Shown here: one piece after another, positions 36,483 through 62,718 of the stretch | How the letters are laid out: each line of letters opens with the position of its first letter | Numbering within the stretch: the first letter of the stretch is position 1 | Source: Candidatus Palauibacter sp. | Lineage (GTDB): Bacteria > Gemmatimonadota > Gemmatimonadetes > Palauibacterales > Palauibacteraceae | Length of the DNA: 64,000 nucleotides | Reading direction: 5' to 3' | Assembly (NCBI RefSeq): GCF_965237495.1 | Contig: NZ_OZ250143.1 | Span: 298,734 to 362,733 of the forward strand | Notes under the pieces: model-generated | Seen by the model: only the letters and a program-made list of their open reading frames with translations | What the model was told of the DNA's origin: nothing | The model's database searches: none | Position numbers and translations under genes: made by a program

Positions 36483-36806
36483 GCCCTCCGGGGACGCCCG
36501 ACCTCTTCACGGAACAGTCCGGACATATCCCCCAATATGGGAGGCTCCAGCTCGGGGAGCGTCGGATATTTTCGCTCGACAAAGTGGAGGGGACGAAGCT
36601 CTTGAGTACCCTTTGCTCGGGCTGTACGAGCCCATATTCCACCCCATTTGGGAGGCGCGCCTGTCTATGGCCGCCGGTATTCTTCCTCGGCCCTGTACGG
36701 GCTGGGGTGGGGTGTGTCGTGGAATCGTACGCCGAAACCGACGACGGTCGTCGGCACCGAGCGTCAAGAGTCACCACTCCGGGACTTCCTTCCAAGGAGG
36801 AGCTGA

Positions 36807-39800
36807 ATGAAGAAGGTTACGAAAGGCCTGTTGACGACAGGGGTTATCGCCTTGATCATCGGCGCCTGCGGAGACACCGTCGAGGTGATCACTCCGGAGC
36901 CGCCGCCGCCGGCGCCGCCCCCCCCCCCCATCGTATTTCCACCGCCGCCGCCACCACCGCCGCCGCCACCGCCGCCGCCCAACAGGGCGCCAGTGGCCGT
37001 CGGCTCGATTCCGGCCATCGCCGTCGATGCGGGTGCAACCGCTTCGCTCGACGTGGCCGGCTACTTCAGCGACGCGGATGGCGACGCGCTCACCTTCTCC
37101 GCCGGGTCCTCGAACGACGCCGCCGCGACCGTGAGCATGGACGGTTCGTCGGCGACGATCACCGGCGTGGCCGACGGGACCGCGGCCGTGACTTTCACGG
37201 CACGCGACCCGGACGGCGCGGCCGCCGCGCAGAACGTCAGCGTGACGGTCGGTGACGGCGTGGCCGGGAACCGGCCGCCCACCGCGGTGAATACGATTCC
37301 CGCGTACAGCGTCGATGTCGGCGGGGCGGTCCAGGTCAACCTGGCACCCTACTTCAGCGATGCGGACGGCGACGATCTCACCTACGCCGCCGCCTCGTCG
37401 AACGAAGATGCGGCGACCACTTCGGTGGACGGCGCCGTCACGACGATCAGCGGCGTTGCCGATGGGATGGCGGTCGTGACGGTCACGGCCAGCGATCCGG
37501 ACGGTGCGAGCGCCTCGCAGACCATCAGCGTGACGGTCGGCGACGGCGACAGCTCGAACACCCCGCCGGTCGCCCAGGGCACGATTCCCGACCACTCCGT
37601 GGCCGCCGGCGGGACGCTCAACGTCGACGTGACGGGGTACTTCAGCGACGCGGACGGCGACGAACTCACCTACATGGCTTCGAGTTCGAACGCCGACGTG
37701 GCCACGGCCACCAACGACGGGGCCACGGTCACGATCAGCGGCGTCGGCGGCGGCCGGGCCGTGATCACCGTGACGGCGAGCGACGGCGAGGCCACGGTTG
37801 CACAGGGCTTCAGCGTGACCGTCGAAGCGGCGCCGGTGAACTCCGCGCCCAGCGCCGTCGGGACCATTCCGAGCCACTCCGTTGGTGTGGGCGGAACGGT
37901 CACCGTTGACGCGGCGGGCTACTTCAGCGATGCCGACGGCGACGAACTCAGCTACACGGTCGCGAGTTCGAACGCCGACGTGGCCACGGCCACCGCCGAT
38001 GGGTCCACGGTGACGATCAGCGGCGTGGCCGCCGGCAGTGCCGTGATCACCGTGACGGCGAGCGACGGCGAGGCCTCGGCGGTGCAGGGCTTCGGCGTGG
38101 CCGTCGAAGCGGCGCCCACGAACAGCGCGCCCACGGCCGTGGGCACGATTCCCGCCCACAGCATCAACCTCGGCGGCACGGCCACGGTCGACGTGGCGGG
38201 CTACTTCAGCGACGCCGATGGGGATGAACTCACCTACAGCGGCTCGAGTTCCAGCCCCGAGGTCGCGACCGTCTCGATGGAAGGTTCGACCGCGACGATC
38301 ACGGCCGTTGCCGTCGGCGGCGCCGTGGTCACGGTCACGGCGAGCGACGGGTCCGCGTCGGCTTCGCAGGGCTTCAACGTCTCCGTCTCCGATCCCTCCG
38401 GGAAGGCGGCTACGGTCGCGATCTTCGGTCTGCGGAGCGTCACCGACCGGAGCACGGCGGTGGATCCGACGAACGTGTCCGGCGACGTCACCGTGCTGCT
38501 CGACGTGCAGCCGAACGACGACACGATCGCCGGCATCGCGCTGACGCTGGGCGAAGAGGTGATCCACTGCCGCGGGACCTCCAGCGACCAGGGCGGGTTT
38601 ATCGCGGCAGCCAGCGGCCAGCTCGAGGTCGAGTGCCTGTTCAAGACGGCCTCGGTGATGGGCGAGTGCGCCGGTGCGCAGCTGGCGCCGTTGTACGCCA
38701 ACGGCGATCACACTCTGGGCGCGCGTGTCACGACCGCTGATGGCGAGACGCGCGAGGCGATCGTCACGCAGCCGATCACGCTCAAGAACACCGGGTTCGT
38801 GATGGTCGAACACAGCGCCGGCAGCACGTCCGCGGTCGTGTCCGGCGTCACCTACCACGGCGGTCCGGTCGACGAGGACGACGACAGCAACCAGAACACG
38901 TTCCACGCCTGCCCGGTGTCGTACGACGGCACGACGGTCGGCGAGCTCTCGCTGACGACGATGCTCACCGGCCCGGACGCGGCCGCCATCGACTCGACGG
39001 TCGCGGACTCGACGCGGGGGGCGACCCTGGTCATCACCAAGGAGATGGACGCGTTCACCTGGAACGTCGACCCGGCCAAGAACAAGGGCGTGGAGAACAG
39101 GGCCGGCAAGGACGAGCACTGGGTCATCAACAGCGGCGACATCAAGGACGATGGCGATCTGCTGGTGACGTCGAAGTTCAGGGGCGAGGAAGAGGCGAGG
39201 GTCGGCCCGCTCTACTTCGACTTCAAGGCGCCCACGTGGACGCATGATCCGGACGAAGACGCGCCGCGGGAGATCCTGGTCAAGACGAGTGCCGCGGCCG
39301 CGGCGTCCGTAGGGGCCACCTACTACAACAGCGGCGCCTTGAGCGTACGCGGCCTGACGGACGGCGGCGTCGGCAAGGCAGGGGCGACCATCGCGGTGGG
39401 CGACTGCGGCCTCGAGGCCAACAGCGACAGCCTCAAGAGCACGGCCTTCATGCCGGCGGCGGGGCTGGAGGCGGTCAGCAACATGGCCGAGCTGCCCGAG
39501 GAGGACCGCACCAAGGACTTCGCCGATGACAAGGGCCTGAACTGCTATACGGCCGAGGTGACCGGGATCGCCGACGGACTCGGGAACGAAGCCACGCTTC
39601 CGGGCACACCCATCGGCACGGCGGCCTACTTCGGCGTCGACAAGGGCGCGCCGGTCGTGACCGACGTGGAGCCCGACGCGCCAGCGGTCCTCAAGCGTAA
39701 CTCAATACTGTCGTTCGAGACCGAAGATCCCGATCTGGCGACGGGCGAATCCGGTTCGGGCATCTGGGCCACCCGCTGGTACCTCGGCGCTACGTACAAG

Positions 39801-41561
39801 GGCGCGTTCGGCGGCTCGGCAGCCAGCCTTGCCGGCAGCACTTTGGGGTTGACGAAGGACGGTGCCTACCGCGTGACCGCGTTCTCGGAGGACAACTCCA
39901 GTCCCGGGAACAGGACTCGGGTCAACTACAGCTTCACGCGGGACACCAAGGCGCCGACCTTTACGGTCAGCAAGTCGCAGTCGAACATCGGCAACACGCA
40001 GGCCACGAGGGTCACCGTCAGCGTCGGCGGCACGATCTCCGATGCGAACGGGATCGACAGGGCGGAACTCAGCATCCGCTCCAAGGCAAGCGGCAGCTGC
40101 CCGCAGGCGGATGACGACGATCTCAATCTCGCCGCGACCCGCGTGACGGGGAACAAGCGGGATCTGTCGGACGACGGTTCGAAGGCGATCACGTTCGACG
40201 AGACGTTCACCCTGAGCGCTCCGGCCGCCGGTGTCGCCGTGCCTGAGGTTCTCTGCTTCTTCCTCATCACGGAAGATGTCGCCACGGACGAGGAAGGCGA
40301 CGGCCCCGGGAACCGCGCGACGTTGGAGGTCGGCTCGTTCACCGTCGGCTGGCCGGATCCGGGCCCGACCTTCAAGGTCGGCGCGGACAACCTCGGGGGC
40401 AGTCCTCTGGCGCAGGGTGCAACCATCACGGCTGAGGCGCCGTTGCGGGTGACCGAGGGCGCCGCCGGTTCCCGGTTCCTGTTCACGCTGAGTTCTACTT
40501 CGAATTCAGCCGTGACGTTCAGCCTCAGCGGGCCGCCGTCCGTGACGTTCACTCCCGCTACGGCCACCGTCACTGCCGGTCAGGAGGTGTCGGAGCCGGT
40601 GACCGTGACGGCGCACCACGACCGGAATGTGACTTCCGACAAGGCCGTGATTACGGCGACCGCCGCGTCGGTCGACGACAACTGGGCCGGCAAGACGCAC
40701 ACGGTCCCGGTGCTGGCGGTCGATGACGACTACACGATGAGTGTGGTGATCAAAGACCGCGGCGGTGACAATAGATTCAACGGGGTGACCGAGAAGTCGC
40801 CCTTCGACGACGGGGCCGCGGTTGCGAGGTGGGTGACGATCAGGATCACGGCGCCGGAGGGTGGAATGCCCCAAACCGACCCGATCGTGCTGACCGGGTC
40901 GTCGGCGACGGGCGACTTCGCCTTCAGTGCTCCGACCTGGGCTATCTATGGAACCTCTCCGGATCCGTACCTGAGCACCGCGGCCGTAGTCCTCACAGTC
41001 GACGCGGCGGAGTACCCCTTCCTTCCCGCGGGAGCGACGGAGGCCGACGTGTGGCTCATCGCCAACGACGACCTGGAGGACGAAGAGGCCGAGTTCATCC
41101 AGATCGGTGCAGATCCGCAGGGTGAGGTCAATCGGATCGAGCCCGTGATGGTCAGGATCGATGACGCCGATCCGGATGTCACGCTCTCCATCGGCAACGT
41201 GAGTGAGGGCGCCGACGGGGTGACCATGACGGTGACGGCCACGGCTGGGGGCCCGATGCCCGGAATCTTCGATCTCCCGGCGGCTCGCTGGGCGCTGGTA
41301 GACGAAGGCGGAGCTCTCGCCACCGCCGGCTATGTTTTCACAGCCTCCGGACCGCTGACCATCGACCGCAACCAGATGTCGGGAACGGTGACCGTGACGG
41401 TGACCGCGCCCGAGGATGCGGACACGGACAACGAGATGCTCAAGATCGGTCTCACGACGACTCAGGCCGTGGAACTGACCGATGCCACAGATGTCAGCGT
41501 CTCGGTCGGCATGCTCGATCTCACGGTTACGGACAACGACGAAGAGAACGGAGGCGGCTGA
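36807..41561 (+). CDS. Giant surface lipoprotein, copy A (poly-Pro linker, five cadherin/Ig-like repeats, variable C-terminal beta domains)
   Basis: AGGAGG RBS, lipobox IIGAC, five N.AP.AVG.IP...YFSDADGD.L repeats. Confidence 0.88.
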   Translation: MKKVTKGLLTTGVIALIIGACGDTVEVITPEPPPPAPPPPPIVFPPPPPPPPPPPPPPNRAPVAVGSIPAIAVDAGATASLDVAGYFSDADGDALTFSAGSSNDAAATVSMDGSSATITGVADGTAAVTFTARDPDGAAAAQNVSVTVGDGVAGNRPPTAVNTIPAYSVDVGGAVQVNLAPYFSDADGDDLTYAAASSNEDAATTSVDGAVTTISGVADGMAVVTVTASDPDGASASQTISVTVGDGDSSNTPPVAQGTIPDHSVAAGGTLNVDVTGYFSDADGDELTYMASSSNADVATATNDGATVTISGVGGGRAVITVTASDGEATVAQGFSVTVEAAPVNSAPSAVGTIPSHSVGVGGTVTVDAAGYFSDADGDELSYTVASSNADVATATADGSTVTISGVAAGSAVITVTASDGEASAVQGFGVAVEAAPTNSAPTAVGTIPAHSINLGGTATVDVAGYFSDADGDELTYSGSSSSPEVATVSMEGSTATITAVAVGGAVVTVTASDGSASASQGFNVSVSDPSGKAATVAIFGLRSVTDRSTAVDPTNVSGDVTVLLDVQPNDDTIAGIALTLGEEVIHCRGTSSDQGGFIAAASGQLEVECLFKTASVMGECAGAQLAPLYANGDHTLGARVTTADGETREAIVTQPITLKNTGFVMVEHSAGSTSAVVSGVTYHGGPVDEDDDSNQNTFHACPVSYDGTTVGELSLTTMLTGPDAAAIDSTVADSTRGATLVITKEMDAFTWNVDPAKNKGVENRAGKDEHWVINSGDIKDDGDLLVTSKFRGEEEARVGPLYFDFKAPTWTHDPDEDAPREILVKTSAAAAASVGATYYNSGALSVRGLTDGGVGKAGATIAVGDCGLEANSDSLKSTAFMPAAGLEAVSNMAELPEEDRTKDFADDKGLNCYTAEVTGIADGLGNEATLPGTPIGTAAYFGVDKGAPVVTDVEPDAPAVLKRNSILSFETEDPDLATGESGSGIWATRWYLGATYKGAFGGSAASLAGSTLGLTKDGAYRVTAFSEDNSSPGNRTRVNYSFTRDTKAPTFTVSKSQSNIGNTQATRVTVSVGGTISDANGIDRAELSIRSKASGSCPQADDDDLNLAATRVTGNKRDLSDDGSKAITFDETFTLSAPAAGVAVPEVLCFFLITEDVATDEEGDGPGNRATLEVGSFTVGWPDPGPTFKVGADNLGGSPLAQGATITAEAPLRVTEGAAGSRFLFTLSSTSNSAVTFSLSGPPSVTFTPATATVTAGQEVSEPVTVTAHHDRNVTSDKAVITATAASVDDNWAGKTHTVPVLAVDDDYTMSVVIKDRGGDNRFNGVTEKSPFDDGAAVARWVTIRITAPEGGMPQTDPIVLTGSSATGDFAFSAPTWAIYGTSPDPYLSTAAVVLTVDAAEYPFLPAGATEADVWLIANDDLEDEEAEFIQIGADPQGEVNRIEPVMVRIDDADPDVTLSIGNVSEGADGVTMTVTATAGGPMPGIFDLPAARWALVDEGGALATAGYVFTASGPLTIDRNQMSGTVTVTVTAPEDADTDNEMLKIGLTTTQAVELTDATDVSVSVGMLDLTVTDNDEENGGG

Positions 41562-41602
41562 TCGCAGGTCGGCCATTCCGGCCACCGTTACCACAGCAGG
41601 AG

Positions 41603-41638
41603 GAGAGGGCCCCGCGAGTTCGCGGGGCCCTTTCTTTT
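41603..41638 (+). terminator. Rho-independent terminator
   Basis: GGGCCCCGCGA-GT-TCGCGGGGCCC followed by TTTCTTTT. Confidence 0.9.
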
Positions 41639-41865
41639 GGCTGGGGGCTTGCGGCGGGTGCGCCCTCGAGAGCCCGGTCACCCTGGCCAGGTAGGCCCGA
41701 GTGCGTATCTGGAGAGAAACGCCTTCCGGGACAGTACCCCCTTATTGGGGGGCGCAGTCCCTTCCTTCCCCACTCTATCATGAATTTAGTCTCTTGCATC
41801 CCAATCTCCAGTTCGAGTTCGCGCGCGGAGACATCTCGCCAACCTCGACGACGAGAACAACTGTG

Positions 41866-44800
41866 ATGAGTACAACAACGTCCGGGACGCCGAGGCTTCG
41901 CAGCGCCGAGCGACGTCATTACCGACATCTATTGTCTGCGTCGCTCCTTCTCGTCTTTCTCGTCGGGATTACCTCCTGCGGAGGAGACGGGACAACGGAT
42001 CCGCCGCCCCCGCCCCCGCCACCCGCACCGGTGGCACCGGTGGCCGTCGGCTCGATCCCGGCGCAGGTCCTCACCGCGGGACAGACGGTGACCGTGGATG
42101 TGACGCCATTCTTCAGCGACCCGGATGGGGGCACCCTGACCTACACCGCTTCATCGTCAGCCCCGGCTGCGCTGTCCGTCTCGATCTCCGGCAGCAACCT
42201 GACGGTGGAGGCGGTGGCGCCGGGCACGGCGACGGTGACGGTGACGGCCACGGACCCGGACGGTCTGACGGCGACGCAGAGTGTCGAGGTGACGGTAGAG
42301 GCGGCCAACCAGGCGCCGGAGGCGGTGGGGACGATCCCCGCGCAGACGACGACGGCCGGCCAGACGGCGACCGTGGACGTGTCGCCCTTCTTCAGCGACC
42401 CTGACGGGGACGATCTGACGTACACGGCGGAGTCGAGCGACACGGACGCGGTGACGGTCAGCATATCGGGGAGCAGCCTGACGGTGGCGGCGGTGGCGCC
42501 GGGTACGGCGACGGTGACGGTGACGGCGTCCGATCCGGACGGCCTGACCGCGACGCAGAGCGCGGAGGTGACCGTAGAGGCGGCCAACCAGGCGCCCGAG
42601 GCGGTGGGGACGATCCCCGCTCAGACGATGACGGCCGGCCAGACGGCGACCGTGGACGTGTCTTCGTTCTTCAGCGATCCCGACGGGGACGAGCTGACGT
42701 ACACGGCGGAGTCGAGCGACACGGACGCGGTGACGGTCAGCATATCGGGGAGCAGCCTGACGGTGACGGCCGTGTCGGAGGGAACGGCGACGGTGACGGT
42801 GACGGCGTCCGACCCGGACGGTCTGACGGCGACGCAGAGCGCCGAGGTGACGGTCGCGGCGGCGAACCAGGCGCCCGAGGCGGTGGGGACGATCCCCGCT
42901 CAGACGATGACGGCCGGCCGGACGGCGACCGTGGACGTGTCTTCGTTCTTCAGCGATCCGGACGGTGACGATCTGACGTACGCGGCGGAGTCGAGCAACA
43001 CGGACGCGGTGACGGTCAGCATATCGGGGAGCAGCCTGACGGTGACGGCCGTGTCGGAGGGAACGGCGACGGTGACGGTGACGGCGTCCGACCCGGACGG
43101 TCTGACCGCGACGCAGAGCGCCGAGGTGACGGTCGAGGCGGCGAACCAGGCGCCCGAGGCGGTGGGGACGATCCCCGCGCAGACGATCACGGCCGGCCGG
43201 ACGGCGACCGTGGAGGTGTCTTCGTTCTTCAGCGATCCGGACGGGGACGACCTGACGTACGCGGCGGAGTCGAGCAACACGGACGCGGTGACGGTCAGCA
43301 TATCGGGGAGCGGCCTGACGGTGACGGCCGTGGCGGCGGGTACGGCGACGGTGACGGTGACGGCGGCGGACTCGGACGGTCTGACGGCGACGCAGAGCGC
43401 CGAGGTGACGGTCGAGGCGGCGAACCAGGCACCCGAGGCGGTGGGGACGATCCCCGCGCAGACGATCACGGCCGGCCGGACGGCGACCGTGGATGTGTCG
43501 CCGTTCTTCAGCGATCCGGACGGTGACGACCTGACGTACGCGGCGGAGTCGAGCCACACGGCCGCGGTGACGGTCAGCCTCTCGGGGAGCGGCCTGACGG
43601 TGACGGCCGTGGCTGCGGGTGCGGCGACGGTGACGGTGACGGCGTCCGACCCGGATGGCCTGACGGCGACGCAGAGTGCCGAGGTGACGGTCGAGGCGGC
43701 CAACCAGGCGCCCGAGGCGGTGGGGACGATTCCCTCGCAGACGATGACCGAGGGCGACGCCGTGACGCTGGACGTGTCCTCCTTCTTCAGCGACCCGGAA
43801 GGAGAGGACCTGACGTACGCGGCGGAGTCGAGCAACACGGACGCGGTGACGGTCAGCCTCTCGGGGAGCAGCCTGACGGTGATGGCCGTGGCGGCGGGTA
43901 CGGCGACGGTGACGGTGACGGCGTCCGACCCGGATGGCCTGACCGCGACGCAGAGCGCCGAGGTGACGGTCGAGGCGGGCAACCGGGCGCCCGAGGCGTT
44001 GGGGACGATTCCCGCCCAGACGGTGAAGCAGTTCGACGCCGTGACCGTGAACATGTTCTGGTTCTTCAGGGATCCGGACGATGACGAGCTGACATACGCG
44101 GCGGAGTCGAGCAACACGGCGGCGGTGACGGTCAGCATGGAGGGCAGCGTCCTGACGTTGACGGTGGTGGCGGCGGGGACGGCGACGGTGACGGTGACCG
44201 CGTCGGATCCGGACGGCTTGACGACGACTCAGAACGTGGAGGTCATCGCCGAGGAGGGCGGCGGATTCAGGGACCACTTCGACACCGCCGCCAGTCTGGA
44301 CGACTGGGACCTCTACAGATCCACGGCTGAGGTGTTCGACGGGGTTCTGTACGTGACGCCGGACGGCACTGGGGATATCGGAACGGCGGATCGCGTGTTT
44401 GACGCCCCGGTGACGGACTGGAAGGTCGGCGTGAGCATGGCCCGAGGCACAGCCGGCGAGGGCGTGGTCGCGTGGTTTGTGATGGGCCACCCCCGGTTCC
44501 GCTTCTGGAGGTTGTCAATCGGGCCGTTCGGAGAAAACAACTACTTCCTGCATGTGTGGGATCGAGAGAGCGCAAACGAAGAGAAGTACGTGCTGATAAC
44601 GAATCTCTCCGGCCACTCGGATGCGATCACCGATGAGGTGAACGAATTCACGGAGATGACTCTCCTGCACCGGAACGGACAGTTCGCCCTCCTCGCGGGA
44701 GGCGTGGAACTGTTCAGACTGAACAGCGCGAACCAGACGTTCAGGGGTGCTGACCTGGACCACATGCTCGAAAGCGTGGAGACAATCTGGCTCGGGGCCG

Positions 44801-44979
44801 TTAGCGAGGGGACGGCATCCTTCGATTGGGCGTATGCGAGTGGCACGGAGATCAGCGCGAGCGCGGCGAACCCGGCGGGGCCGCCACCCATGGGCGCCTC
44901 TCCGCGTCTTCCGGAAGGCGCGAAACAGGCGCGGCCGGGGAACCTGACCGACACTCTCCGTCCCGGGAAGGGTCGATAG
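41866..44979 (+). CDS. Lipoprotein with eight tandem cadherin/Ig-like repeats and a C-terminal beta-sandwich domain
   Basis: Lipobox ITSC, poly-Pro, eight repeats with FF.DPD.D; start uncertain. Confidence 0.87.
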   Translation: MSTTTSGTPRLRSAERRHYRHLLSASLLLVFLVGITSCGGDGTTDPPPPPPPPAPVAPVAVGSIPAQVLTAGQTVTVDVTPFFSDPDGGTLTYTASSSAPAALSVSISGSNLTVEAVAPGTATVTVTATDPDGLTATQSVEVTVEAANQAPEAVGTIPAQTTTAGQTATVDVSPFFSDPDGDDLTYTAESSDTDAVTVSISGSSLTVAAVAPGTATVTVTASDPDGLTATQSAEVTVEAANQAPEAVGTIPAQTMTAGQTATVDVSSFFSDPDGDELTYTAESSDTDAVTVSISGSSLTVTAVSEGTATVTVTASDPDGLTATQSAEVTVAAANQAPEAVGTIPAQTMTAGRTATVDVSSFFSDPDGDDLTYAAESSNTDAVTVSISGSSLTVTAVSEGTATVTVTASDPDGLTATQSAEVTVEAANQAPEAVGTIPAQTITAGRTATVEVSSFFSDPDGDDLTYAAESSNTDAVTVSISGSGLTVTAVAAGTATVTVTAADSDGLTATQSAEVTVEAANQAPEAVGTIPAQTITAGRTATVDVSPFFSDPDGDDLTYAAESSHTAAVTVSLSGSGLTVTAVAAGAATVTVTASDPDGLTATQSAEVTVEAANQAPEAVGTIPSQTMTEGDAVTLDVSSFFSDPEGEDLTYAAESSNTDAVTVSLSGSSLTVMAVAAGTATVTVTASDPDGLTATQSAEVTVEAGNRAPEALGTIPAQTVKQFDAVTVNMFWFFRDPDDDELTYAAESSNTAAVTVSMEGSVLTLTVVAAGTATVTVTASDPDGLTTTQNVEVIAEEGGGFRDHFDTAASLDDWDLYRSTAEVFDGVLYVTPDGTGDIGTADRVFDAPVTDWKVGVSMARGTAGEGVVAWFVMGHPRFRFWRLSIGPFGENNYFLHVWDRESANEEKYVLITNLSGHSDAITDEVNEFTEMTLLHRNGQFALLAGGVELFRLNSANQTFRGADLDHMLESVETIWLGAVSEGTASFDWAYASGTEISASAANPAGPPPMGASPRLPEGAKQARPGNLTDTLRPGKGR
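42030..44250 (+). repeat. 279-bp (93-aa) intragenic tandem repeat x8
   Basis: AACCAGGCG units at 42307, 42586, 42865 and onward, spaced 279 bp. Confidence 0.9.
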
Positions 44980-44986
44980 GCGGGCC

Positions 44987-53278: not shown

Positions 53279-53288
53279 CAGGTCGAAG

Positions 53289-53543: not shown

Positions 53544-54005
53544 TCAGGCCGCATGCCGAACCCGCGCGTGATTGGCATCGTAGACGGTTTGCGTCCTGAG
53601 CATGGCGCGGGCGACGGCCAGGAGGCGGTCGGCGGCAGGCGTGCGATTTCGCGCCGGGCGTCGCGGAGTTGCCGTTGCGCGAGGCGGAGACGTTCCGAAG
53701 CGCCGCGGATGTGGGCCACGGCGGCCTCGGTCGGTCCTCAAGGCGTCGGCGAGCACCCGGGCGTCGCGGCTGTCGTCCTTCGCCCCGGCCGGGGAGAAGC
53801 GGTCGCGGAAGCGGTCGAGCTGCTTCGGGTTGACCGCGTACACCGGATAGCCGCGGTCCATGAGGCTCTCCACCACCGGGCCGTGCGGAACCTCGATCGC
53901 CACCGGCACCTCCCCGGCGGCGGCGCCCGTCCCCGCCACGATCCACTCGGCCATCTCCGCCAGCCCCGCCCCGCCATGGCGGAACGTCCGTTCGCGCCTC
54001 ATCGC
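53544..54005 (-). pseudogene. IS110 recombinase remnant (part of the DEDD domain joined to the extreme C-terminus)
   Basis: VAIE.PHG.VVE.L...G..VYAVNPKQLDRFRDRF..AGAKDD.RDA.VLADALRTD, then ADRLL.VA.AMLR..T.YD. Confidence 0.85.
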
Positions 54006-54014
54006 CCCGATGCC

Positions 54015-54210
54015 TGCCGGTCCCTGTACTGGCGCTCGATGGCGCAACTCCCCACTGGGCATCCATCACGGCTCCGGACGCGGGTACGAGTCCCCCCCAG
54101 GTGCTCGGCGGCACGGGGGGCGCCTGGTTACTCCGCGCCCGGTTCCGCCCATCTTGTACGCAGACCAACCATAACCGAGTGTGAACTTTGCAGAAAACGA
54201 CTCGGAAAGA
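54015..54210 (-). ncRNA. Putative IS110 bridge RNA (target- and donor-binding loops)
   Basis: Guide segments match the element ends and flanks on opposite strands, each pair separated by a short hairpin (see findings). Confidence 0.7.
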
Positions 54211-54227
54211 GTACAGGAGGCGCTCAC

Positions 54228-54364
54228 CGTCTCGGTCCCCGACCTCCCCCCGGGGCGTCCGTCCCGTCCAGGCGGAGGCTGGCCGGATACTCCACTTCGG
54301 CGACGATATCCTGCGGGTGCCGATCCAGGTCGTGGACGACGCGGGCCGCGTCCTGCGAGTGATC
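54228..54364 (+). pseudogene. 3' remnant of a leishmanolysin-like gene (homologous to ~57588-57720)
   Basis: PDLPPGRP ... GRILHFGDDILRVPI.VVDD.GRV.RVI, with a small frameshifting insertion. Confidence 0.85.
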
Positions 54365-55165
54365 TGCCGATTCCGACGCATGCCGTCCACCGTTACTTGC
54401 GCCGGGCGTCCGGCGAGTGCGGAGCATGGCAGGGGGAGCAGAGTGGGTAAGCGGCGCTGGATGACCTGATGTGAGGTGCCGTTCTTCCATCCTCGCGAGA
54501 GATCCTTGAGCGAGGAGGGAGACGGTGTCCCAGCAGAGGTTGTCCATGCGCAAGATTCGAGATGTTCTCCGGCTGAAGTACGGGCTGGGCCGGAGCCACC
54601 GGGAGATCGCCGGGATACTCGGGATCTCCCACAGCACGGTCGACGGCTACGTGCGGCGGGCGCGGGAGGCGGGGGTCTCCTGCCCGTTGCCGGAGGGGCT
54701 GGACGACGGAAGCCTCGATGCGGCGCTGTATCCGGCCCGTCCCCCCTCGCGCGTGCCGCGCCCGGAGCCGGACTGGGAGCGGGTGCACCGGGAGCTGGCG
54801 CGGCACAAGGGCGTGACGCTTCAGCTTCCGTGGCTGGAGTACCGCGAGGCCCATCCCGACGGCTACCAGTACAGCCGGTTCCGCGACCGGTACCGGCAGT
54901 GGCGCGGGCGGCTGGACGTGGTGCTGCGCCAGGTGTACCGGGCGGGCGAGAAGGCGTTCGTGGACTACGCGGGCCCGACGGTGAAGGTAACGGACCGCGA
55001 GACCGGCGAGATCCACCAGGCCAAGGTGTTCGTCGGGGTGCTGGCGGCGTCGAACTACACGTTCGCCGACCTGACGCCGAGCCGGTCGTTGCCGGACTGG
55101 ACGGCTTCGCACGTGCGGATGTTCGAGTTCTGGGGCGGGGTGCCGGAACTCGTGGTTCCCGACAA
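54365..55165 (+). mobile_element. Truncated IS21-family element (left end + 5' part of istA)
   Basis: Starts TGCCGATTCCG exactly where M8 homology stops; istA at 54525. Confidence 0.8.
54525..55165 (+). pseudogene. istA: IS21-family transposase IstA, truncated
   Basis: RL.MRKIR.VLRL, PDW..VH.EL, W.EY...HPDGY.YS.F, AGEK.FVDYAG, FGG-like WGGVP..VVPD then break. Confidence 0.9.
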
Positions 55166-55168
55166 GTC

Positions 55169-56068
55169 ACGCTGAGTTCGGCTCCGAAGGCGGCCGTGGT
55201 CGTCAGCCTCAGCGCTCCGGCGACCGTGTCGGTCAGTCCCACCTCGGTGACGATCGATGCCAACGCCCTGGTGTCGGCGCCGATCACCGTAACGGCGGGT
55301 CACGACCGGAATGTGACCTCGGAGAAGGCCGTGATCACGGCCACCGCCTCGGGCGACGAGAACTACAGGGGTGCGACGGGCTCGGTCGCGGTCATGACCG
55401 CTGACGATGACTTCTCGTTGACGGCGACACCCTCGTCGGTGACCGAGAATACGCCCTTCGCCGATGCGTCGGCACGGCTCGTGACGATCACGGTGACGGC
55501 GCCCGCGGGTGGAACGGCCAGCACGAGCCCGGTCCAGCTGGGCGCCTCGGGTGCGGGCTACACGTTCCAGGAATACACGGAGGATGAGGCGTACACCGGG
55601 CAAGAGCAGACGCTACCTACGGCTACGCCAGTGGAGACCGATCCGCCCACGCTGGTGTCTTCCGTCAAGGTGTGGCTCGCCGCCGCCGACGACACCGCCG
55701 ACGAAGATCCCCAGTTGATCCAGATCGGCGAGACGCCGGAAACTGAAGAGGCGCGGATCGAGCCTGTCATGATCACGATCATGGACGCCGATCCGGATGT
55801 CACCCTCTCGATCGACGCGGTCGACGAGGGCGCGGACGAGGTCACGATGACGATCACGGCCACGGCCGCCGGCGCGATGCCGGGCATCTTCGAGATTGGC
55901 GCGGATCGTTGGGCGATTCTGGCCGAAGACGGCACCGCGGCCAATCCCGTTCCGGATGGCTACGTTTTCACGGCGTCCGGGACGTTGACGATCGACCGTA
56001 ATCAGACCGAGGGAACGGTGACCGTGACGGTGACCGTGCCCGAGGACGACGACAAGGACGACGGGTAA
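55169..56068 (+). pseudogene. Orphan C-terminal cassette (copy B) of the giant lipoprotein
   Basis: TAGHDRNV, ENTPF, RIEPVM..I.DADPDVTLSI and TIDRNQ shared with copies A and C; no start codon or signal peptide. Confidence 0.85.
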
Positions 56069-56122
56069 CGGAGGAAGCTGATGGTCGGTTGGCCATGAAG
56101 GCCACCGTTTCCCGAGCAGCAC

Positions 56123-56160
56123 AGAAAGGGCCCCGCGAACTCGCGGGGCCCTTTCTTTTT
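56123..56160 (+). terminator. Rho-independent terminator (copy 2)
   Basis: AGAAAGGGCCCCGCGA-AC-TCGCGGGGCCCTTTCT followed by a T tract. Confidence 0.9.
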
Positions 56161-56279
56161 GTGCCTCGCAGTTTCTTCTGACGGAATCCGCTACATTCGG
56201 CAGGTGAGAGGGCCAGCGCCGCCTTCGATGCCGCGAGCGGCGCGGGCTACGGGGGCGCGAAGGTGCCTGCCAGACACGG

Positions 56280-57732
56280 ATGGCGGGAGGGATGGACATT
56301 GGCGCACGCCGATCCTCCTCGGCCGCCCGGATTGTTGCCGGCGGGCTCCCGGCCTTCGCCGGCGCATGGGCGATCGCCTGCTCGGAGGCGCGTACCGGGC
56401 CGGAACCCGGGCCGCCGACGCCGCCCCCGACGCCGAACCGGCCGCCGGCGCCGGTGGGCGCGATTCCCGGCCAGGAGGTCGCGGTCGGGGATGCGCTCCA
56501 GGTCGCGGTCTCGTCGTACTTCACCGACCCCGATGGGGACCCGCTGACGTTCGACGCCCGTTTCTCGAATCCGGGCGTGGCGACGGCCGCGGCCGCGGAA
56601 GACCTGGTGACGCTGGCGGCGCTCGCCCCGGGTGCGGCGACGATCACGCTGACGGCTACCGATCCGGCCGGTCTCGAGACGTTCCAGAGCTTCGAGGCGA
56701 GGGTGCTGAACCACCCGCCCGGCATCACCGCCACGCTGCCGGACCTGCACCTGGAGTCGGGGGAGGAACACATGCCGGTCCTGTCCCGCTTCTTCGCGGA
56801 TCCGGACGGCGACGCCATCAACTTCTCCGCAACCTCCTCCGATGAGACTCGGGTGAGCGTCACGTCGTCGACGGACACGGTCTGGATCAGAGGCGAGTCG
56901 GAGGGCACGGCACGGATCACCGTGAGCGCCACCGACGCCCCGGGCCTCTCCGCGGCGGGTGTCCACCTGGGAGTCGGTCCTCGCGAACACCGAACTGAGC
57001 GACGTGACCTTCAACCGCCCGCTGAGCTGCGGCGGCCTGACCACGACGGAGGCCGTTGCGACCGTGGACGAACTGCTGATCCTGTTCACCGCCGCGAGCA
57101 TGGATGGCCCCCACGGAACCCTGGGCTACGCGGGCCCGTGCATCGTCCGCTCGAGTAACAGCCTGCCGATCGTCGGCCGCGTGGTCCCGGACTCGGAGGA
57201 CATGGACCGGATTCCCGCGACGACGGGACTGCTCGACGTGGTCATCCACGAGATGGCGCACATCCTCGGCTTCGGCATCCCGTGGGACGATTTCGGCCTG
57301 CTCGCGGACCCTGCGTCCGTCACGCCCGGGGCCGACACGCACTTCACCGGCGCGGGTGCCATCGCGGCCTTCAATGCTGCCGGCGGCGCGAGCTACACGG
57401 GCGCCAAGGTACCCGTCCAGAACGAGGAGCCCGGGCCGGAGAGCCACTGGCGCGAATCGATCTTCCGGGGGGAGACGATGAGCCCGGTGGAATACACCGA
57501 CCGCGGCGAGTCCCTGAGCGCGATCACAATCCGGTCGCTGGCCGACCTCGGCTATACGGTCGACACTGTCCTCGCCGACCCGTACGGCGTCTCGCTCCCC
57601 GACCTCCCCCCGGGGCGTCCGGTCCAGGCGGAGGCCGGCCGGATCCTCCACTTCGGCGACGACATCCTGCGGGTGCCGATCCGCGTCGTGGACGACGAGG
57701 GCCGCGTCATCCGAGTGATCCCGCCCCGCTGA
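56280..57732 (+). pseudogene. Ig-repeat + leishmanolysin-like (M8) metalloprotease lipoprotein, frame broken near 56955
   Basis: Lipobox AIAC, two FxDPDGD repeats; second frame has HEMAHILGFG, THFTG, SHWRES.F.GE.M. Confidence 0.75.
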
Positions 57733-57945
57733 CCCCGGTAGGGGACCCCCCCAAAGACCGCGCCGACGCCCCGCCCGAGCGCACTCACGGAACCTCGCCC
57801 AGCCCCCGGTTTACGGGGGATTCTGTCCACCTTGCATCAGGGGATCAGTACCCCTTGTTTGGGGTGGTGTCTCGGTAGTACGTTCTGGCGCGACCGGGAA
57901 AATTGCGTCACGACCCGGAGGACATTCATCCCGAGGAGGAGCTGA

Positions 57946-60900
57946 ATGAAGAAGGTTACGAAAGGCCTGTTGACGACAGGGGTTATCGCCCTGATCATCG
58001 GTGCCTGCGGAGACACCGTCGAGGTGATCACTCCGGAGCCGCCGCCGCCGCCGCCCCCCCCCCCACCCATCGTATTTCCACCGCCGCCGCCACCACCGCC
58101 GCCGCCACCGCCGCCGCCCAACAGGGCGCCAGTGGCCGTCGGCTCGATTCCGGCCATCGCCGTCGATGCGGGTGCAAGCGCTTCGCTCGACGTGGCCGGC
58201 TACTTCAGCGACGCGGATGGCGACGCGCTCACCTTCTCCGCCGGGTCCTCGAACGACGCCGCGGCGACCGTCAGCATGGACGGTTCGTCGGCGACGATCA
58301 CCGGCGTGGCCGACGGGACCGCGGCCGTGACTTTCACGGCACGCGACCCGGACGGCGCGGCCGCCGCGCAGAACGTCAGCGTGACGGTCGGTGACGGCGT
58401 GGCCGGGAACCGGCCGCCCACCGCGGTGAATACGATTCCCGCGTACAGCGTCGATGTCGGCGGGGCGGTCCAGGTCAACCTGGCACCCTACTTCAGCGAT
58501 GCCGACGGCGACGATCTCACCTACGCCGCCGCCTCGTCGAACGAAGATGCGGCGACCACTTCGGTGGACGGCGCCGTCACGACGATCAGCGGCGTTGCCG
58601 ATGGGATGGCCGTCGTGACGGTCACGGCCAGCGATCCGGACGGTGCGAGCGCCTCGCAGACCATCAGCGTCACGGTCGGCGACGGCGACAGCTCGAACAC
58701 CCCGCCGGTCGCCCAGGGCACGATTCCCGACCACACCGTGGCCGCCGGCGGGACGCTCAACGTCGACGTGACGGGGTACTTCAGCGACGCGGACGGCGAC
58801 GAACTCACCTACATGGCTTCGAGTTCGAACGCCGACGTGGCCACGGCCACCAACGACGGGGCCACGGTCACGATCAGCGGCGTCGGCGGTGGCCGGGCCG
58901 TGATCACCGTGACGGCGAGCGACGGCGAGGCCACGGTTGCACAGGGCTTCAGCGTGACCGTCGAAGCGGCGCCGGTGAACTCCGCGCCCAGCGCCGTCGG
59001 GACCATTCCGAGCCACTCCGTTGGTGTGGGCGGAACGGTCACCGTTGACGCGGCGGGCTACTTCAGCGATGCCGACGGCGACGAACTCAGCTACACGGTC
59101 GCGAGTTCGAACGCCGACGTGGCCACGGCCTCCGCCGATGGGTCCACGGTGACGATCAGCGGCGTGGCCGCCGGCAGTGCCGTGATCACCGTGACGGCGA
59201 GCGACGGCGAGGCCTCGGCGGTGCAGGGCTTCGGCGTGGCCGTCGAAGCGGCGCCCACGAACAGCGCGCCCACGGCCGTGGGCACGATTCCCGCCCACAG
59301 CATCAACCTCGGCGGCACGGCCACGGTCGACGTGGCGGGCTACTTCAGCGACGCCGATGGGGATGAACTCAGCTACAGCGGCTCGAGTTCCAGCCCCGAG
59401 GTCGCGACCATCTCGATGGAAGGTTCGACCGCGACGATCACCGCCGTTGCCGTCGGCGGCGCCGTCGTGACGGTCACGGCGAGCGATGGGTCCGCGTCGG
59501 CTTCGCAGGGCTTCAACGTCTCCGTCTCCGATCCCTCCGGGAAGGCGGCGACGGTCGCGATCTTCGGTCTGCGGAGCGTCACCGACCGGAGCACGGCGGT
59601 GGATCCGACGAACGTGTCCGGCGACGTCACCGTGCTGCTCGACGTGCAGCCGAACGACGACACGATCGCCGGCATCGCGCTGACGCTGGGCGAAGAGGTG
59701 ATCCACTGCCGCGGCACCTCCAGCGACCAGGGCGGGTTTATCGCGGCAGCCAGCGGCCAGCTCGAGGTCGAGTGCCTGTTCAAGACGGCCTCCGTGATGG
59801 GCGAGTGCGCCGGTGCGCAGCTGGCGCCGTTGTACGCCAACGGCGATCACACTCTGGGCGCGCGTGTCACGACCGCTGATGGCGAGACGCGCGAGGCGAT
59901 CGTCACGCAGCCGATCACGCTCAAGAACTCCGGGTTCGTGATGGTCGAACACAGCGCCGGCAGCAAGTCCGCGGTCGTGTCCGGCGTCACCTACCACGGC
60001 GGTCCGGTCGACGAGGACGACGACAGCAACCAGAACACGTTCCACGCCTGCCCGGTGTCGTACGACGGCACGACGGTCGGCGAGCTCTCGCTGACGACGA
60101 TGCTCACCGGCCCGGACGCGGCCGCCATCGACTCGACGGTCGCGGACTCGACGCGGGGGGCGACCCTGGTCATCACCAAGGAGAAGGGCGCGTTCACCTG
60201 GAACGTCGCCCCGGCCAAGAACACGGGCGTGGAGGACAGGGCCGGCAAGGACGAGCACTGGGTCATCAACAGCGGCGACATCAAGGACGATGGCGATCTG
60301 CTGGTGACGTCGAAGTTCAGGGGCGAGGAAGAGGCGAGGGTCGGCCCGCTCTACTTCGACTTCAAGACGCCCACGTGGACACATGATCCGGACGAGGACA
60401 CGCCGCGGGAGATCCTGGTCAAGACGAGTGCCACGAGGCCTGCGGCGTCCGTAGGGGCCACCTACTACAACAGCGGCGCCTTGAGCGTACGCGGCCTGAC
60501 GGACGGCGGCGTCGGCAAGGCAGGGGCGACCATCGCGGTGGGCGACTGCGGCCTCGAGGCCAACAGCGACAGCCTCAAGAGCACGGCCTTCATGCCGGCG
60601 GCGGGGCTGGAGGCGGTCAGCAACATGGCCGAGCTGCCCGAGGAGGACCGCACCAAGGACTTCGCCGATGACAAGGGCCTGAACTGCTATACGGCCGAGG
60701 TGACCGGGATCGCCGACGGACTCGGGAACGAAGCCACGCTTCCGGGCACACCCATCGGCACGGCGGCCTACTTCGGCGTCGACAAGGGCGCGCCGGTCGT
60801 GACCGACGTGGAGCCCGACGCGCCAGCGGTCCTCAAGCGTACCTCAATACTGTCGTTCGAGACCGAAGATCCCGATCTGGCGACGGGCGAATCCGGTTCG

Positions 60901-62718
60901 GGCATCTGGGCCACCCGCTGGTACCTCGGCGCTACGTACAAGGGCGCGTTCGGCGGCTCGGCAGCCAGCCTTGTCGGCCGCGTTTTGGGGTTGACGAAGG
61001 ACGGTGCCTACCGCGTGACCGCGTTCTCGGAGGACAACTCCAGTCCCGGGAACAGGACTCGGGTCAACTACAGCTTCACGCTGGACACCAAGGCACCCAC
61101 CTTCGCGGTCAGCAAGAGCCAGTCGAACATCGGCAATACGCACGCCACGACGGTCATCGTAAGCGTGGGCGGAACGATCTCCGACGCGAACGGCATCGAG
61201 GCGGCGGAACTCAGCATCCGGTCTCCGGCGGCTGGCGTCTGCCCGACGAGTGCCGACGACGAGCTCAATCTTCCCGCGCGCCGCGTGACGGGGAACAAGC
61301 GGGATCTGTCGGACGACGGTTCGAAGGCGGTCACGTTCGACGAGACCTTCACCGTCAAGGCTCCGTCCGCCGGCGACATTTCCGGTGCCGGTCCGTTCCT
61401 GGAGGAAGCTCTCTGCTTCTACCTCTACACGGAGGATGTCGCGACGGATGAGGAGGGCGACGGTCCCGGGAACCGGGCGGAGTATGATGTCGGGTCGTTC
61501 ACCGTGAATTGGAGCAAGCCTGGCCCGGTCCACCGCCTCGGTGCCGTCCATGTCGTTGAAGACAACAACATGGACGACAGCCTGTCGACGAGCGTCATCG
61601 ACGAAGACAACCCGTTGACGCCGACGGAGGGCGGCGACGCCAAGTTCGCGATCCAGCTGACTTCGGTGCCGAGACGCGACGTGACGGTCAGCTTCAGCGC
61701 TCCGGCGACCGTGGAGGTCAGTCCCGCCTCGGTCACGATCGCGAGCGGCACCACGACGTCGACGTTCATCACCGTAACGGCGGGCCACGACCGGAATGTG
61801 GTCTCGGAGGAGGCCGTGATCACGGCCTCCGCCACGTCGATCGAGCCGAGATACAGCGGCGCGACGGGCGCGGTCAATGTCACGACCGCCGACGACGACT
61901 TCGGGTTGACGGCGACACCGTCGTCCGTGACGGAGAACACGCCCTTCGCCACCGGGACCGCACGGCTGGTCACGATCCGTGTGCAAGCGCCCAAGGGTGG
62001 GGATACCAACACCGACCCGGTCATGCTCGGTGTGTCGGATGCGGGCTATACGTTCAGGACCGCGACCGTGTCGGCGACTGGTGTGGCGACGCCGTACACC
62101 GGGACAGAGGGGGCCATCACGGAGGTCACCCCGGACTCGGTGGTTGCGACGCCGGGCCGGTCGCGGGCCTACGCGTGGCTCTCCGCTGACGACGACACCG
62201 CCGACGAAGATCCCCAGTTGATCCAGATCGGCGCGACGCCGGAAACTGAAGAGGCGCGGATCGAGCCCGTCATGATCACGATCGTGGACGCCGATCCGGA
62301 TGTCACCCTCTCGATCGACGCGGTCGACGAGGGCGCGGACGAGGTCACGATGACGATCACGGCCACGGCCGCCGGCGGGATGCCGGGCATCTTCGTTATC
62401 CCGGCCGCCCGCTGGGCGCTGGTAGAGGACGAGGACCAGGAGACACCAACCCTCGAGAGCCTCGGCTATGCCGTTGTGGCGTCCGGGTCGCTGACGATCG
62501 ACCGTAACCAGACGTCGGGAACGGTGACCGTGACGGTGTCCGTGCCCGAGGACGCCGACAAGGAGGACGGGATGTTCAAGGTCGCCGTTTCAGATGCCGG
62601 AGGGGCGACTGCTCAGGTCGTTGCGCTGAGCGGCGTCAGCGGCGTCAACGTCTCCGTCGGCCAGCTCGAGGTCACGGTTACGGACAACGACAAGGGCGAC
62701 GGGAACGGAGGAGGCTGA
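57946..62718 (+). CDS. Giant surface lipoprotein, copy C (paralog of 36807-41561)
   Basis: Near-identical to copy A over about the first 1050 aa; diverged C-terminus. Confidence 0.88.
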   Translation: MKKVTKGLLTTGVIALIIGACGDTVEVITPEPPPPPPPPPPIVFPPPPPPPPPPPPPPNRAPVAVGSIPAIAVDAGASASLDVAGYFSDADGDALTFSAGSSNDAAATVSMDGSSATITGVADGTAAVTFTARDPDGAAAAQNVSVTVGDGVAGNRPPTAVNTIPAYSVDVGGAVQVNLAPYFSDADGDDLTYAAASSNEDAATTSVDGAVTTISGVADGMAVVTVTASDPDGASASQTISVTVGDGDSSNTPPVAQGTIPDHTVAAGGTLNVDVTGYFSDADGDELTYMASSSNADVATATNDGATVTISGVGGGRAVITVTASDGEATVAQGFSVTVEAAPVNSAPSAVGTIPSHSVGVGGTVTVDAAGYFSDADGDELSYTVASSNADVATASADGSTVTISGVAAGSAVITVTASDGEASAVQGFGVAVEAAPTNSAPTAVGTIPAHSINLGGTATVDVAGYFSDADGDELSYSGSSSSPEVATISMEGSTATITAVAVGGAVVTVTASDGSASASQGFNVSVSDPSGKAATVAIFGLRSVTDRSTAVDPTNVSGDVTVLLDVQPNDDTIAGIALTLGEEVIHCRGTSSDQGGFIAAASGQLEVECLFKTASVMGECAGAQLAPLYANGDHTLGARVTTADGETREAIVTQPITLKNSGFVMVEHSAGSKSAVVSGVTYHGGPVDEDDDSNQNTFHACPVSYDGTTVGELSLTTMLTGPDAAAIDSTVADSTRGATLVITKEKGAFTWNVAPAKNTGVEDRAGKDEHWVINSGDIKDDGDLLVTSKFRGEEEARVGPLYFDFKTPTWTHDPDEDTPREILVKTSATRPAASVGATYYNSGALSVRGLTDGGVGKAGATIAVGDCGLEANSDSLKSTAFMPAAGLEAVSNMAELPEEDRTKDFADDKGLNCYTAEVTGIADGLGNEATLPGTPIGTAAYFGVDKGAPVVTDVEPDAPAVLKRTSILSFETEDPDLATGESGSGIWATRWYLGATYKGAFGGSAASLVGRVLGLTKDGAYRVTAFSEDNSSPGNRTRVNYSFTLDTKAPTFAVSKSQSNIGNTHATTVIVSVGGTISDANGIEAAELSIRSPAAGVCPTSADDELNLPARRVTGNKRDLSDDGSKAVTFDETFTVKAPSAGDISGAGPFLEEALCFYLYTEDVATDEEGDGPGNRAEYDVGSFTVNWSKPGPVHRLGAVHVVEDNNMDDSLSTSVIDEDNPLTPTEGGDAKFAIQLTSVPRRDVTVSFSAPATVEVSPASVTIASGTTTSTFITVTAGHDRNVVSEEAVITASATSIEPRYSGATGAVNVTTADDDFGLTATPSSVTENTPFATGTARLVTIRVQAPKGGDTNTDPVMLGVSDAGYTFRTATVSATGVATPYTGTEGAITEVTPDSVVATPGRSRAYAWLSADDDTADEDPQLIQIGATPETEEARIEPVMITIVDADPDVTLSIDAVDEGADEVTMTITATAAGGMPGIFVIPAARWALVEDEDQETPTLESLGYAVVASGSLTIDRNQTSGTVTVTVSVPEDADKEDGMFKVAVSDAGGATAQVVALSGVSGVNVSVGQLEVTVTDNDKGDGNGGG

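Follow-up and report, generated by a model that had tools for sequence, protein, structure and literature searches.

Paralogous giant lipoproteins of a marine Candidatus Palauibacter share a near-identical proximal part and differ in their distal parts

Paralogous surface proteins that exchange segments are known from Helicobacter pylori, in which babA, babB and babC sit at fixed loci behind different promoters and gene conversion between them gives rise to chimeras and relocated alleles; the Bab proteins, which are adhesins of the outer membrane with a beta-barrel fold, vary in the middle and are conserved at both ends, and they switch on the timescale of an infection. The vsa shufflon of Mycoplasma pulmonis has one signal-bearing 5' end and promoterless 3' copies that start at a single conserved site, and polymorphic toxins such as CdiA and Rhs have a conserved long N-terminus, abrupt variable C-termini and a 5'-truncated orphan copy downstream. 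The closest analogue of the genes described here, by likeness of organization, would be LigA/LigB of Leptospira, which are lipoproteins. LigA's and LigB's first six and a half immunoglobulin-like (Ig-like) domains are almost identical, with identity running from -266 to +1890, and ligA is thought to have arisen through partial duplication of ligB, the lig genes also showing recombination and gene flow between one another (PMC7821625). Here we analyse two giant lipoprotein genes, A and C, in a window of 64,000 nucleotides (nt) from Candidatus Palauibacter sp. (Gemmatimonadota), which corresponds to G000:C1:298734-362733 of a closed 4.29-Mb genome of 68.5% G+C (G000, the source genome). The genus has no cultured member and is common in marine sediments and sponges.

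Like the Lig proteins, A and C are paralogues with tandem bacterial Ig-like domains whose first part is near-identical and then gives way to a divergent one, and the comparison is between systems that work alike. However, identity between the lig genes includes the promoter, whereas that between A and C starts at the ribosome-binding site (RBS) and each copy keeps its own upstream region; the shared part of A and C is longer (3.1 kb), and their distal part is a beta-sandwich array without a Pfam family, where Lig has Big_2 domains and a C-terminal extension. With the bab genes A and C have in common that paralogues with different upstream regions appear to exchange segments, but switching on the timescale of an infection is known only of the former. 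A reading as polymorphic toxins was rejected, as the distal part is an Ig-like array and the downstream gene codes for a Big_9 lipoprotein, not a toxin followed by a small immunity gene.

Architecture and mosaic structure of the gene pair

Gene A (window positions 36807..41561, +) codes for a lipoprotein of 1584 amino acids (aa), as judged from its open reading frame (ORF) and translation, Pfam and AlphaFold models, and gene C (57946..62718, +) codes for a paralogue of 1590 aa with a distal region of C/B type from ~61040, B being a truncated third copy. Bacterial lipoproteins, the substrates of Lgt and LspA, start with a signal peptide whose end is a lipobox containing an invariant cysteine; both translations begin with MKKVTKGLLTTGVIALIIGAC followed by GD, which was called by eye against the lipobox pattern as a signal with its lipobox (Cys21 in A). 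A proline-rich spacer of ~35 residues, the poly-Pro linker, follows the signal in both proteins and leads to five Ig-like repeats and ~10 more beta-sandwich domains. The five tandem repeats of A (Big_9/Big_2; aa 59-530, 36981..38396, +) were recognised by Pfam as five stretches of Big_2, Big_9 and Cadherin_4, of which Big_2 and Big_9 exceed the gathering threshold, with scores of 77.9 and 63.4 bits for Big_2 (cut-off 22.8) and 48.1 and 60.9 bits for Big_9 (cut-off 23.6), and they are ~74% identical to each other at the DNA level (self-blast).

The repeats are followed by a middle region (aa 531-1043; 38397..39935, +), a beta-sandwich array without a Pfam family, and by a distal region (aa 1044-1584; 39936..41558, +) of A type that is divergent from C. 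Pfam returned nothing meaningful at E<10 for these ~1050 residues, and a search of A against NCBIfam found no family. Calx-beta domains, suggested by V.I.DDD-like motifs, were discarded because they had no Pfam support in A, PF03160 being found only in the distant matches P0028 and P0029. AlphaFold models built from 29-row alignments gave predicted local distance difference test (pLDDT) values of 84.3 for aa 531-1043 and 86.6 for aa 1044-1584, and both are all-beta strings of beta-sandwich domains in the DSSP summary. For both models, Foldseek against the PDB returned generic Ig arrays (adhesin extenders, PrgB, and the S-layer proteins SbsB and HPI) with template modelling (TM) scores <=0.26, and the ESM Atlas returned generic Ig-like clusters alone, with scores <=0.83. 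As modelled, A and C are made entirely of tandem Ig-like domains beyond the N-terminus. The best Foldseek matches, Ca2+-stabilised repeat adhesins and Ig-array S-layer proteins such as MpIBP (4p99), the Aeromonas RTX adhesin (6xi1), SbsB (4aq1) and Deinococcus HPI (8cka), are also rod-like strings of beta-sandwich domains, but TM scores of 0.13-0.26 and identities of 8-15% make this a generic fold resemblance, and A and C are lipid-anchored rather than dependent on a type I secretion system (T1SS) or S-layer homology (SLH) domains.

The family is small and lineage-restricted, with 146 clusters at E<=1e-3 and 76 at E<=1e-30 among 1.84 billion representatives, and A and C represent a new family of giant Ig-array lipoproteins. 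No description of it was found for the Palauibacter lineage in a limited literature search on the genus, and in a word search the Palauibacterales ecogenomics paper had no mention of lipoprotein, Ig-like, cadherin, eukaryotic-like or adhesi- (PMC10469786).

The mosaic structure of the pair is plain from their alignment. A blastn comparison of A with C gave a single match, 36770-40345 against 57907-61505, at 96.3% identity, and in 100-nt windows identity is 93-100% from 36861 to ~39950, 75-86% up to ~40345 and then 46-76% with indels. The near-identical tract (36795..39900, + on the A side, matching C from 57934 to ~61040) is 98.55% identical: over 3109 columns it differs by 42 substitutions and a single indel of 3 nt (3 gapped columns). 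Identity begins ~12 nt before the ATG, at the RBS, so that the promoter region is not included, and upstream of 36763 it falls to 33-40%, the level of unrelated sequence. The density of differences changes between 39841 and 39940: 43 differences fall in 1047 codons, whereas the last 388 aligned codons hold 411, a contrast far beyond chance.

The initial annotation of this DNA, made from the sequence alone, had described A and C as near-identical from the RBS for about 3.1 kb with an abrupt break at ~39950/~61095 and unrelated upstream regions, and our alignments agree with it on each of these points. The RBS motif and all six of the anchors that it listed in the distal part (HDRNV, WL.A.DD, RIEPVM..I.DADPDVTLSI, MPGIF, RWA and TIDRNQ) are present in both copies. 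Its further statement that the divergence sits in loops between these anchors was only partly confirmed. Indels do fall mostly in predicted coil (13 of the 16 positions that are gaps in C, and each of the 5 places where C has an insertion), but the strands diverge too: over aa 1180-1584, predicted strands of A and C are 50% identical and coil 42%.

Two chromosomal positions and unequal ages of the parts

Forty relatives were searched, 24 genomes of the same genus and 16 of another family. The lipoprotein family was matched in 16 of the 24 and in none of the 16, and among all 40 close homologues were found in one genome alone, G012, which has copies at the same two positions as G000: G12_1 after a UvrA-like gene (position 1, that of A) and G12_2 after a Big_2 gene (position 2, that of C). 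The region upstream of A, which follows the UvrA-like gene (36483..36806, +), shares conserved blocks with G12_1 up to the RBS, and the region upstream of C (57733..57945, +) is conserved with G12_2 and unrelated to that of A. Upstream regions thus track position right to the RBS. The flanking DNA of G000 and G012 is 96-97% identical, including 9.35 kb at 97.1%.

This arrangement in a second genome also bears on whether there really are two copies. The genome is a single contig whose assembly history is not given, and the shared tract of 3.1 kb is longer than short reads, so that strain variants or a collapsed repeat could in principle have been stitched into two tandem copies. We consider this very improbable: G012 has the same two-position architecture, and in the assembled contigs of independent sequencing runs the two upstream junctions, the A junction and the letters that tell the paralogues apart all recur. 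From four runs (X1, X2, X3 and X9), Logan contigs, which drop rare variants, were compared with A. In X1, which may be the source sample, a 3486-nt contig covers 38863-41800 and bridges the A junction with 0 differences. X2, from another study, has contigs that match both the unique upstream region and the distal part of A with 0 differences, roughly twofold depth on the shared tract, and a loose end at 36795 that carries the upstream sequence of C. All 18 of the X2/X3 variant letters among those listed are exact A-to-C differences, and the same A and C alleles occur in these two metagenomes of another study. The possibility raised earlier that the identical N-termini were an assembly collapse was therefore not borne out. 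Only the reference forms of A and C, and no alternative junction, were seen in the X1, X2 and X3 contigs, in which rare variants would be hidden; three odd contig joints with 21-nt sides were treated as repeat artefacts. The RNA run X9 has contigs at 95-99% on the shared part only and leaves A's distal part uncovered, and since 20 of 22 listed X9-only letters are not A/C differences, its contigs derive from another strain and were set aside as evidence on A/C expression.

Synonymous divergence (dS), calculated by the Nei-Gojobori method along the gene, establishes that the parts of A and C are unequal in age. It is 0.025 over aa 1-1048 (20 synonymous and 23 non-synonymous differences) and rises to 0.445 over aa 1044-1211 and 0.516 over aa 1212-1584, or, in another segmentation, to 0.37 over aa 1048-1180 and 0.54 from aa 1180 to the end. 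Because synonymous divergence steps from 0.025 to ~0.5, the shared part is young and not merely conserved, and the step points to a difference in age rather than to constraint at the protein level. This argues against the alternative that no recombination took place and that purifying selection on the N-terminal part and relaxed selection on the C-terminal part produced the contrast. The 85-100% identity of the N-terminal 700 residues across ten close family members and a ratio of non-synonymous to synonymous divergence (dN/dS) of 0.31 in the Ig repeats between genomes (confidence interval (CI) 0.18-0.52) would suit such an explanation. However, synonymous divergence collapses too (0.025 within the genome, 0.10-0.13 for the same proximal codons between G000 and G012, and 0.5 distally), and the two parts give incongruent trees; the explanation is refuted by the step in dS together with the quartet counts given below, and we regard it as next to impossible.

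The orthologous distal pair, A and G12_2, has a dN/dS of 1.30 (bootstrap CI 0.86-2.05). As a control, the adjacent UvrA-like gene compared between genomes with the same script gave 0.19, which indicates that the method does not inflate the ratio. The distal value fits diversifying selection, although it is not significantly above 1. Flanking genes of G000 and G012 have a dS of 0.027-0.11, and by this measure the last homogenisation of A and C (dS 0.025) is about as old as the split from G012.

Probable gene conversion between positions and old distal types

The two copies in G012 have a mosaic of their own. In A numbering, nt identity of G12_1 and G12_2 is 95-100% from the start to aa ~800, 53-77% over aa 807-1043, 99-100% over aa 1043-1212 and 65-79% after aa 1212, so their tract borders differ from those of A and C. 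Over aa 1-1043, 204 of the 211 quartet-informative sites group A with C and G12_1 with G12_2 (the other groupings have 6 and 1), and over aa 1212-1584 there are 79 sites that group A with G12_2 and C with G12_1 (14 and 10 for the others). A is 84-94% nt identical to G12_2 across aa 1212-1584, and the A-type distal end occupies position 1 in G000 but position 2 in G012. The quartet incongruence and the segment identities together imply that the distal types are older than the split of G000 and G012. The site patterns indicate that the proximal parts were homogenised independently in the two genomes, and at least four recombination events can be counted, their orientation not being derivable. 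The earlier proposal that the stalk is homogenised by gene conversion or recent duplication is strengthened by the dS of 0.025 against 0.45-0.52, by the 204 of 211 sites and by the independent homogenisation in G012.

The distal part is diverse beyond these four genes. Twelve sequences (A, B, C, G12_1, G12_2 and seven proteins from metagenomes) were compared block by block, with types defined at 85% identity. Blocks up to aa 794 are of one type, except for aa 698-747 (three types) and the outlier P0010, and from aa 795 onward there are 7-10 types per block among 11-12 sequences, in reassorted combinations. In block aa 1128-1170 A matches both G012 copies and C matches P0007, in block aa 1254-1300 A matches G12_2 and B matches P0003, and in block aa 1437-1484 C, B and P0003 share one type. 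That the distal tip diversifies, as had been proposed from A and C alone, is supported by the 9-10 types that the distal part has in 11-12 sequences while flanks are 96-97% identical, together with the dN/dS of 1.3.

Copy B (55171..56068, +), delimited by alignment to C, is a 5'-truncated remnant that matches C aa ~1237-1544 and has lost 131 nt internally, ahead of the terminator that it shares with C, so that the frame is broken. In 25-codon windows its nt identity to C alternates between 91-99% and 47-52%, with one 225-nt patch at 91-99%. A fragment of an IS21-family transposase gene abuts it (54525..55165, +; NCBIfam NF033546 positions 1-185 of 294) and is cut at ~codon 214: homology of this insertion sequence (IS) to a second genomic copy stops at ~55165, and homology of B to C starts at 55171. 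The second IS21 copy, 82% identical, lies at G000:C1:3993018 beside an integrase homologue at 3990479. Nearby are a fragment of an IS110-family transposase gene (53544..54062, -; Pfam PF01548, NCBIfam NF033542 positions 23-111 of 343) and the leftover 3' end of an M8-like peptidase gene (54228..54364, +), a duplicate of 57588-57720 at 90.5% over 137 nt. B is followed by a terminator hairpin (56123..56156, +) that is duplicated after C (~62761-62793) and by a truncated Big_9 lipoprotein gene (56280..57158, +; Pfam) with 82-88% nt identity to 62863-63380. The segment at 53.3-57.85 kb has no counterpart in G012, and copy B is a decaying remnant of a third copy or module, cut by IS elements.

C's distal part and downstream gene are paralogous to the B module (77-91% nt identity), which opens a further possibility. 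The break at 39.9/61.0 kb may be the left edge of a replaced 3' module, an A-like gene at position 2 having received a B/C-type distal part and the Big_9 gene from a third copy or from another Palauibacter lineage. The C-type module is absent at position 2 of G012, where the distal part is of A type, and the metagenomic protein P0003 shares C/B-type blocks, both of which speak for such a replacement. Even so, it would still need recombination between paralogues to account for the middle type of A and C (aa 801-1043), which is absent from both G012 copies. We hold this version tentatively, and it refines the explanation given next rather than replacing it.

The explanation that we consider probable is that A and C are lipid-anchored envelope paralogues whose proximal part has been repeatedly overwritten by gene conversion while old distal types were kept. 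The two genes sit at two conserved chromosomal positions, each with its own upstream region, and conversion between them would repeatedly overwrite the proximal part, which in G000 means the stretch from the RBS to codon ~1040. Old and very different types would persist in the distal 370-540 residues; they evolve with dN/dS near 1 and would have undergone transfer between positions and block-wise reshuffling from strain to strain, copy B being a decayed third module cut by IS elements. An extended rod, serving as an adhesin or a surface fibril, is the most likely form of these proteins. We infer that they are surface-exposed and adhesive, and that phage, host or ligand select for their distal diversity, which would then be more than a mere relaxation of constraint.

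The case for and against programmed variation in the locus and in the family

Programmed variation would be a different matter: on/off switching by slippage in a poly-C tract combined with distal cassettes, with B as silent donor, copied at high frequency and allowing escape from phage or host. A C12 homopolymer lies in codons 38-41 of A, in the poly-Pro linker (36918..36929, +), and is a candidate slippage tract; C has a C11 homopolymer in the same linker (58054..58064, +). The presence of such tracts in the 5' coding part of both genes is in favour of this idea, and so is the genome-wide excess of long runs to which they belong: runs of G or C fall from 384 to 81, 14 and 3 for lengths 7-10, but 15 runs are >=11. 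The two tracts are possible slipped-strand switches on this basis. A database copy of A, on a 20.9-kb contig of another assembly, is identical from residue 64 and was called only from a GTG at codon 63, which may fit a frame-shifted 5' end there, as a candidate only. Copy B is promoterless and shares with C the 225-nt patch at 91-99% between windows of 47-52%, as a donor would. On the other hand, linker homologues in G012, G010, G006 and G019 are encoded without such a C run. The contig comparison passed over the repeat at 36891-36985, in which the C12 tract lies, and a pattern scan of JGI metagenomes for the poly-C region gave 0 loci.

Of 62 matches in the source genome only 3 extend past aa 567, namely A, C and B, the last a remnant of 300 aa. 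There is thus no archive of promoterless cassettes serving one expression site, as in silent-cassette antigenic variation of the vls, pilS or vsa type, and B is a single short decayed fragment with a frame-breaking 131-nt deletion that abuts IS debris. The domain scan covered 32 window ORFs, those of <120 aa or with G+C at third codon positions (GC3) <0.8 being left aside, and no recombinase, invertase, integrase or reverse transcriptase domain was found in these 32; the genome has 11 integrase homologues, with 0 of them within 335-362 kb. Near the upstream regions only weak inverted repeats (71-85% complementary) were detected, and none brackets either promoter region. A diversity-generating retroelement was rejected, since no reverse transcriptase was found in the 32 ORFs and the divergence spans 1.6 kb with indels, and phase variation by an invertible promoter finds no support, given the lack of bracketing inverted repeats and of a recombinase among these ORFs. 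The youngest tract, with a dS of 0.025, is not a recent event, and the X2 and X3 contigs show the same alleles, although contigs hide rare variants. We therefore consider programmed variation improbable. The initial annotation had likened the pair to an antigenic-variation system, and this part found no support: besides two full genes the genome has a single decayed fragment, the 32 ORFs and the repeat scans gave no sign of a recombinase, a reverse transcriptase or an invertible promoter, and the same alleles recur in X2 and X3. Its likening to abundant surface-layer proteins had no support beyond the low-TM fold matches to SbsB and HPI.

Other members of the family are arranged differently. 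G019 has one signal-bearing copy beside the UvrA-like gene and five 5'-truncated copies, a point that also favours programmed variation, and G010 has one truncated copy. Homology starts at one identical 21-nt site in four of the five truncated G019 copies and in the G010 copy; the site codes for VTITAADPDG at the end of an Ig repeat, and the fifth G019 copy begins a few codons later. The upstream flanks of the truncated copies are of four kinds, mostly unrelated and richer in A+T. P4-type integrases (Arm-DNA-bind_3, Phage_int_M and Phage_integrase) lie directly upstream of two truncated copies, and a third integrase-led island splits a G010 copy at the HD.N anchor. Arm-binding P4-type integrases are typical of integrative islands, and the truncated copies suggest integrative elements that target the gene family. 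The truncated or integrase-linked loci are L035:3371-8081, L033 and L034 in G019, and L039:6178-10924 and L041:3603-13392 in G010. Segmental duplications of 5-8 kb at 98-100% identity place family members at distant or inverted locations of closed genomes (L038/L040 in G010, L036/L037 in G006 and L033-L035 in G019), and three paralogues of G010 share 92-94% identity over their N-terminal 1.2 kb and diverge in the rest.

The arrangement in G019 and G010 resembles that of the vsa shufflon, unlike the source window, which has two full genes. It differs from vsa in that no site-specific invertase was found, the G019/G010 integrases being of the arm-binding P4 type, and the 21-nt site has 0 matches in the window at <=3 mismatches. 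It is conceivable, though unlikely, that the family works by cassette exchange, a signal-bearing 5' end being combined with alternative promoterless 3' modules, some of them delivered at one site by P4-type integrases, with poly-C on/off switching here and B as a relic donor. If true, an uncultured phylum associated with sponges would have a system of surface variation, partly carried on integrative elements that bring in or displace ~3 kb of gene 3' ends. Programmed variation is not supported at the A/C locus and is possible for the family.

Several points weigh against repeated gene conversion with retention of old distal types, the explanation that we prefer. Four sequences cannot resolve the direction or the number of conversions, and since G012 lacks the C-type distal part and its downstream gene at position 2, both may have come from another lineage instead of having been kept locally. 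Relaxed constraint is compatible with a distal dN/dS that does not significantly exceed 1. The C11/C12 tracts could add a programmed on/off layer, and as integrases flank 5'-truncated copies elsewhere, general homologous recombination may not be the sole mechanism in the family.

Gene neighbourhood and meaning for the family

The neighbouring genes are of lipoprotein or secreted type, with eight Big_9 domains, leucine-rich repeats plus an M66-like peptidase, RCC1 repeats, Big_2 and an M8-like ORF. Directly after A lies a gene for a 1092-aa protein (41701..44979, +) with eight tandem Big_9 repeats in units of 279 bp (Pfam Big_9 x8, NCBIfam tandem-95 repeat), which are 82-89% identical by self-blast; the G012 orthologue is longer (1166 aa), which indicates that repeat number varies. 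The next lipoprotein (44987-48151) has Big_2, leucine-rich repeats and a weak M66/reprolysin-like metallopeptidase region; it matched NCBIfam Xop-type leucine-rich repeat models far below their cut-offs, and its dN/dS to G012 is 0.84. Upstream of C there is a short M8 (leishmanolysin)-like ORF (56959..57732, +; Pfam PF01457, E 3.6e-8), and downstream of C a Big_9 lipoprotein gene with a lipobox-like N-terminus (62855..64000, +; Pfam) runs off the window. A promoter scan gave one promoter-like match inside each of the coding regions of A and C and none upstream, the sole notable match of a terminator scan was the one after B, and Rfam had no match on 30000-64000.

To the left of A, the UvrA-like gene lies in a 1570-aa ORF (31770-36482), and the G012 orthologue has 967 aa; the long N-terminal extension is probably an artefact of ORF calling at high G+C. 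This gene is the conserved left neighbour of the signal-bearing family copy in G000, G012, G010, G006 and G019. Further upstream, a fused GH3 (NagZ-like) and beta-lactamase-fold protein (27971-31168) adjoins a NamZ exo-muramidase (26677-28203, -), and the two likely form a cell-wall recycling pair; their ORFs overlap by ~230 nt, probably because of a miscalled start. The minus strand also has an ORF of 486 aa with DUF222 and an HNH endonuclease domain (25140-26597). An Omp85/POTRA protein of 1029 aa followed by a TamB-like protein of 1573 aa (16381-24185) make up a pair of TAM type for outer-membrane assembly, which lies 12 kb upstream of the island of lipoprotein genes.

Examination of A and C brings the known recombination pattern of variable bacterial surface proteins to a lipoprotein family of marine Gemmatimonadota. 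The locus is a clean natural example of partial concerted evolution, by a mechanism that is well known from pathogens. With flanks 96-97% identical between genomes and distal halves in many reshuffled types, these proteins, the largest envelope proteins of the genus, are a hot spot, and their distal diversity marks them as prime candidates for contact with hosts, particles or phages.

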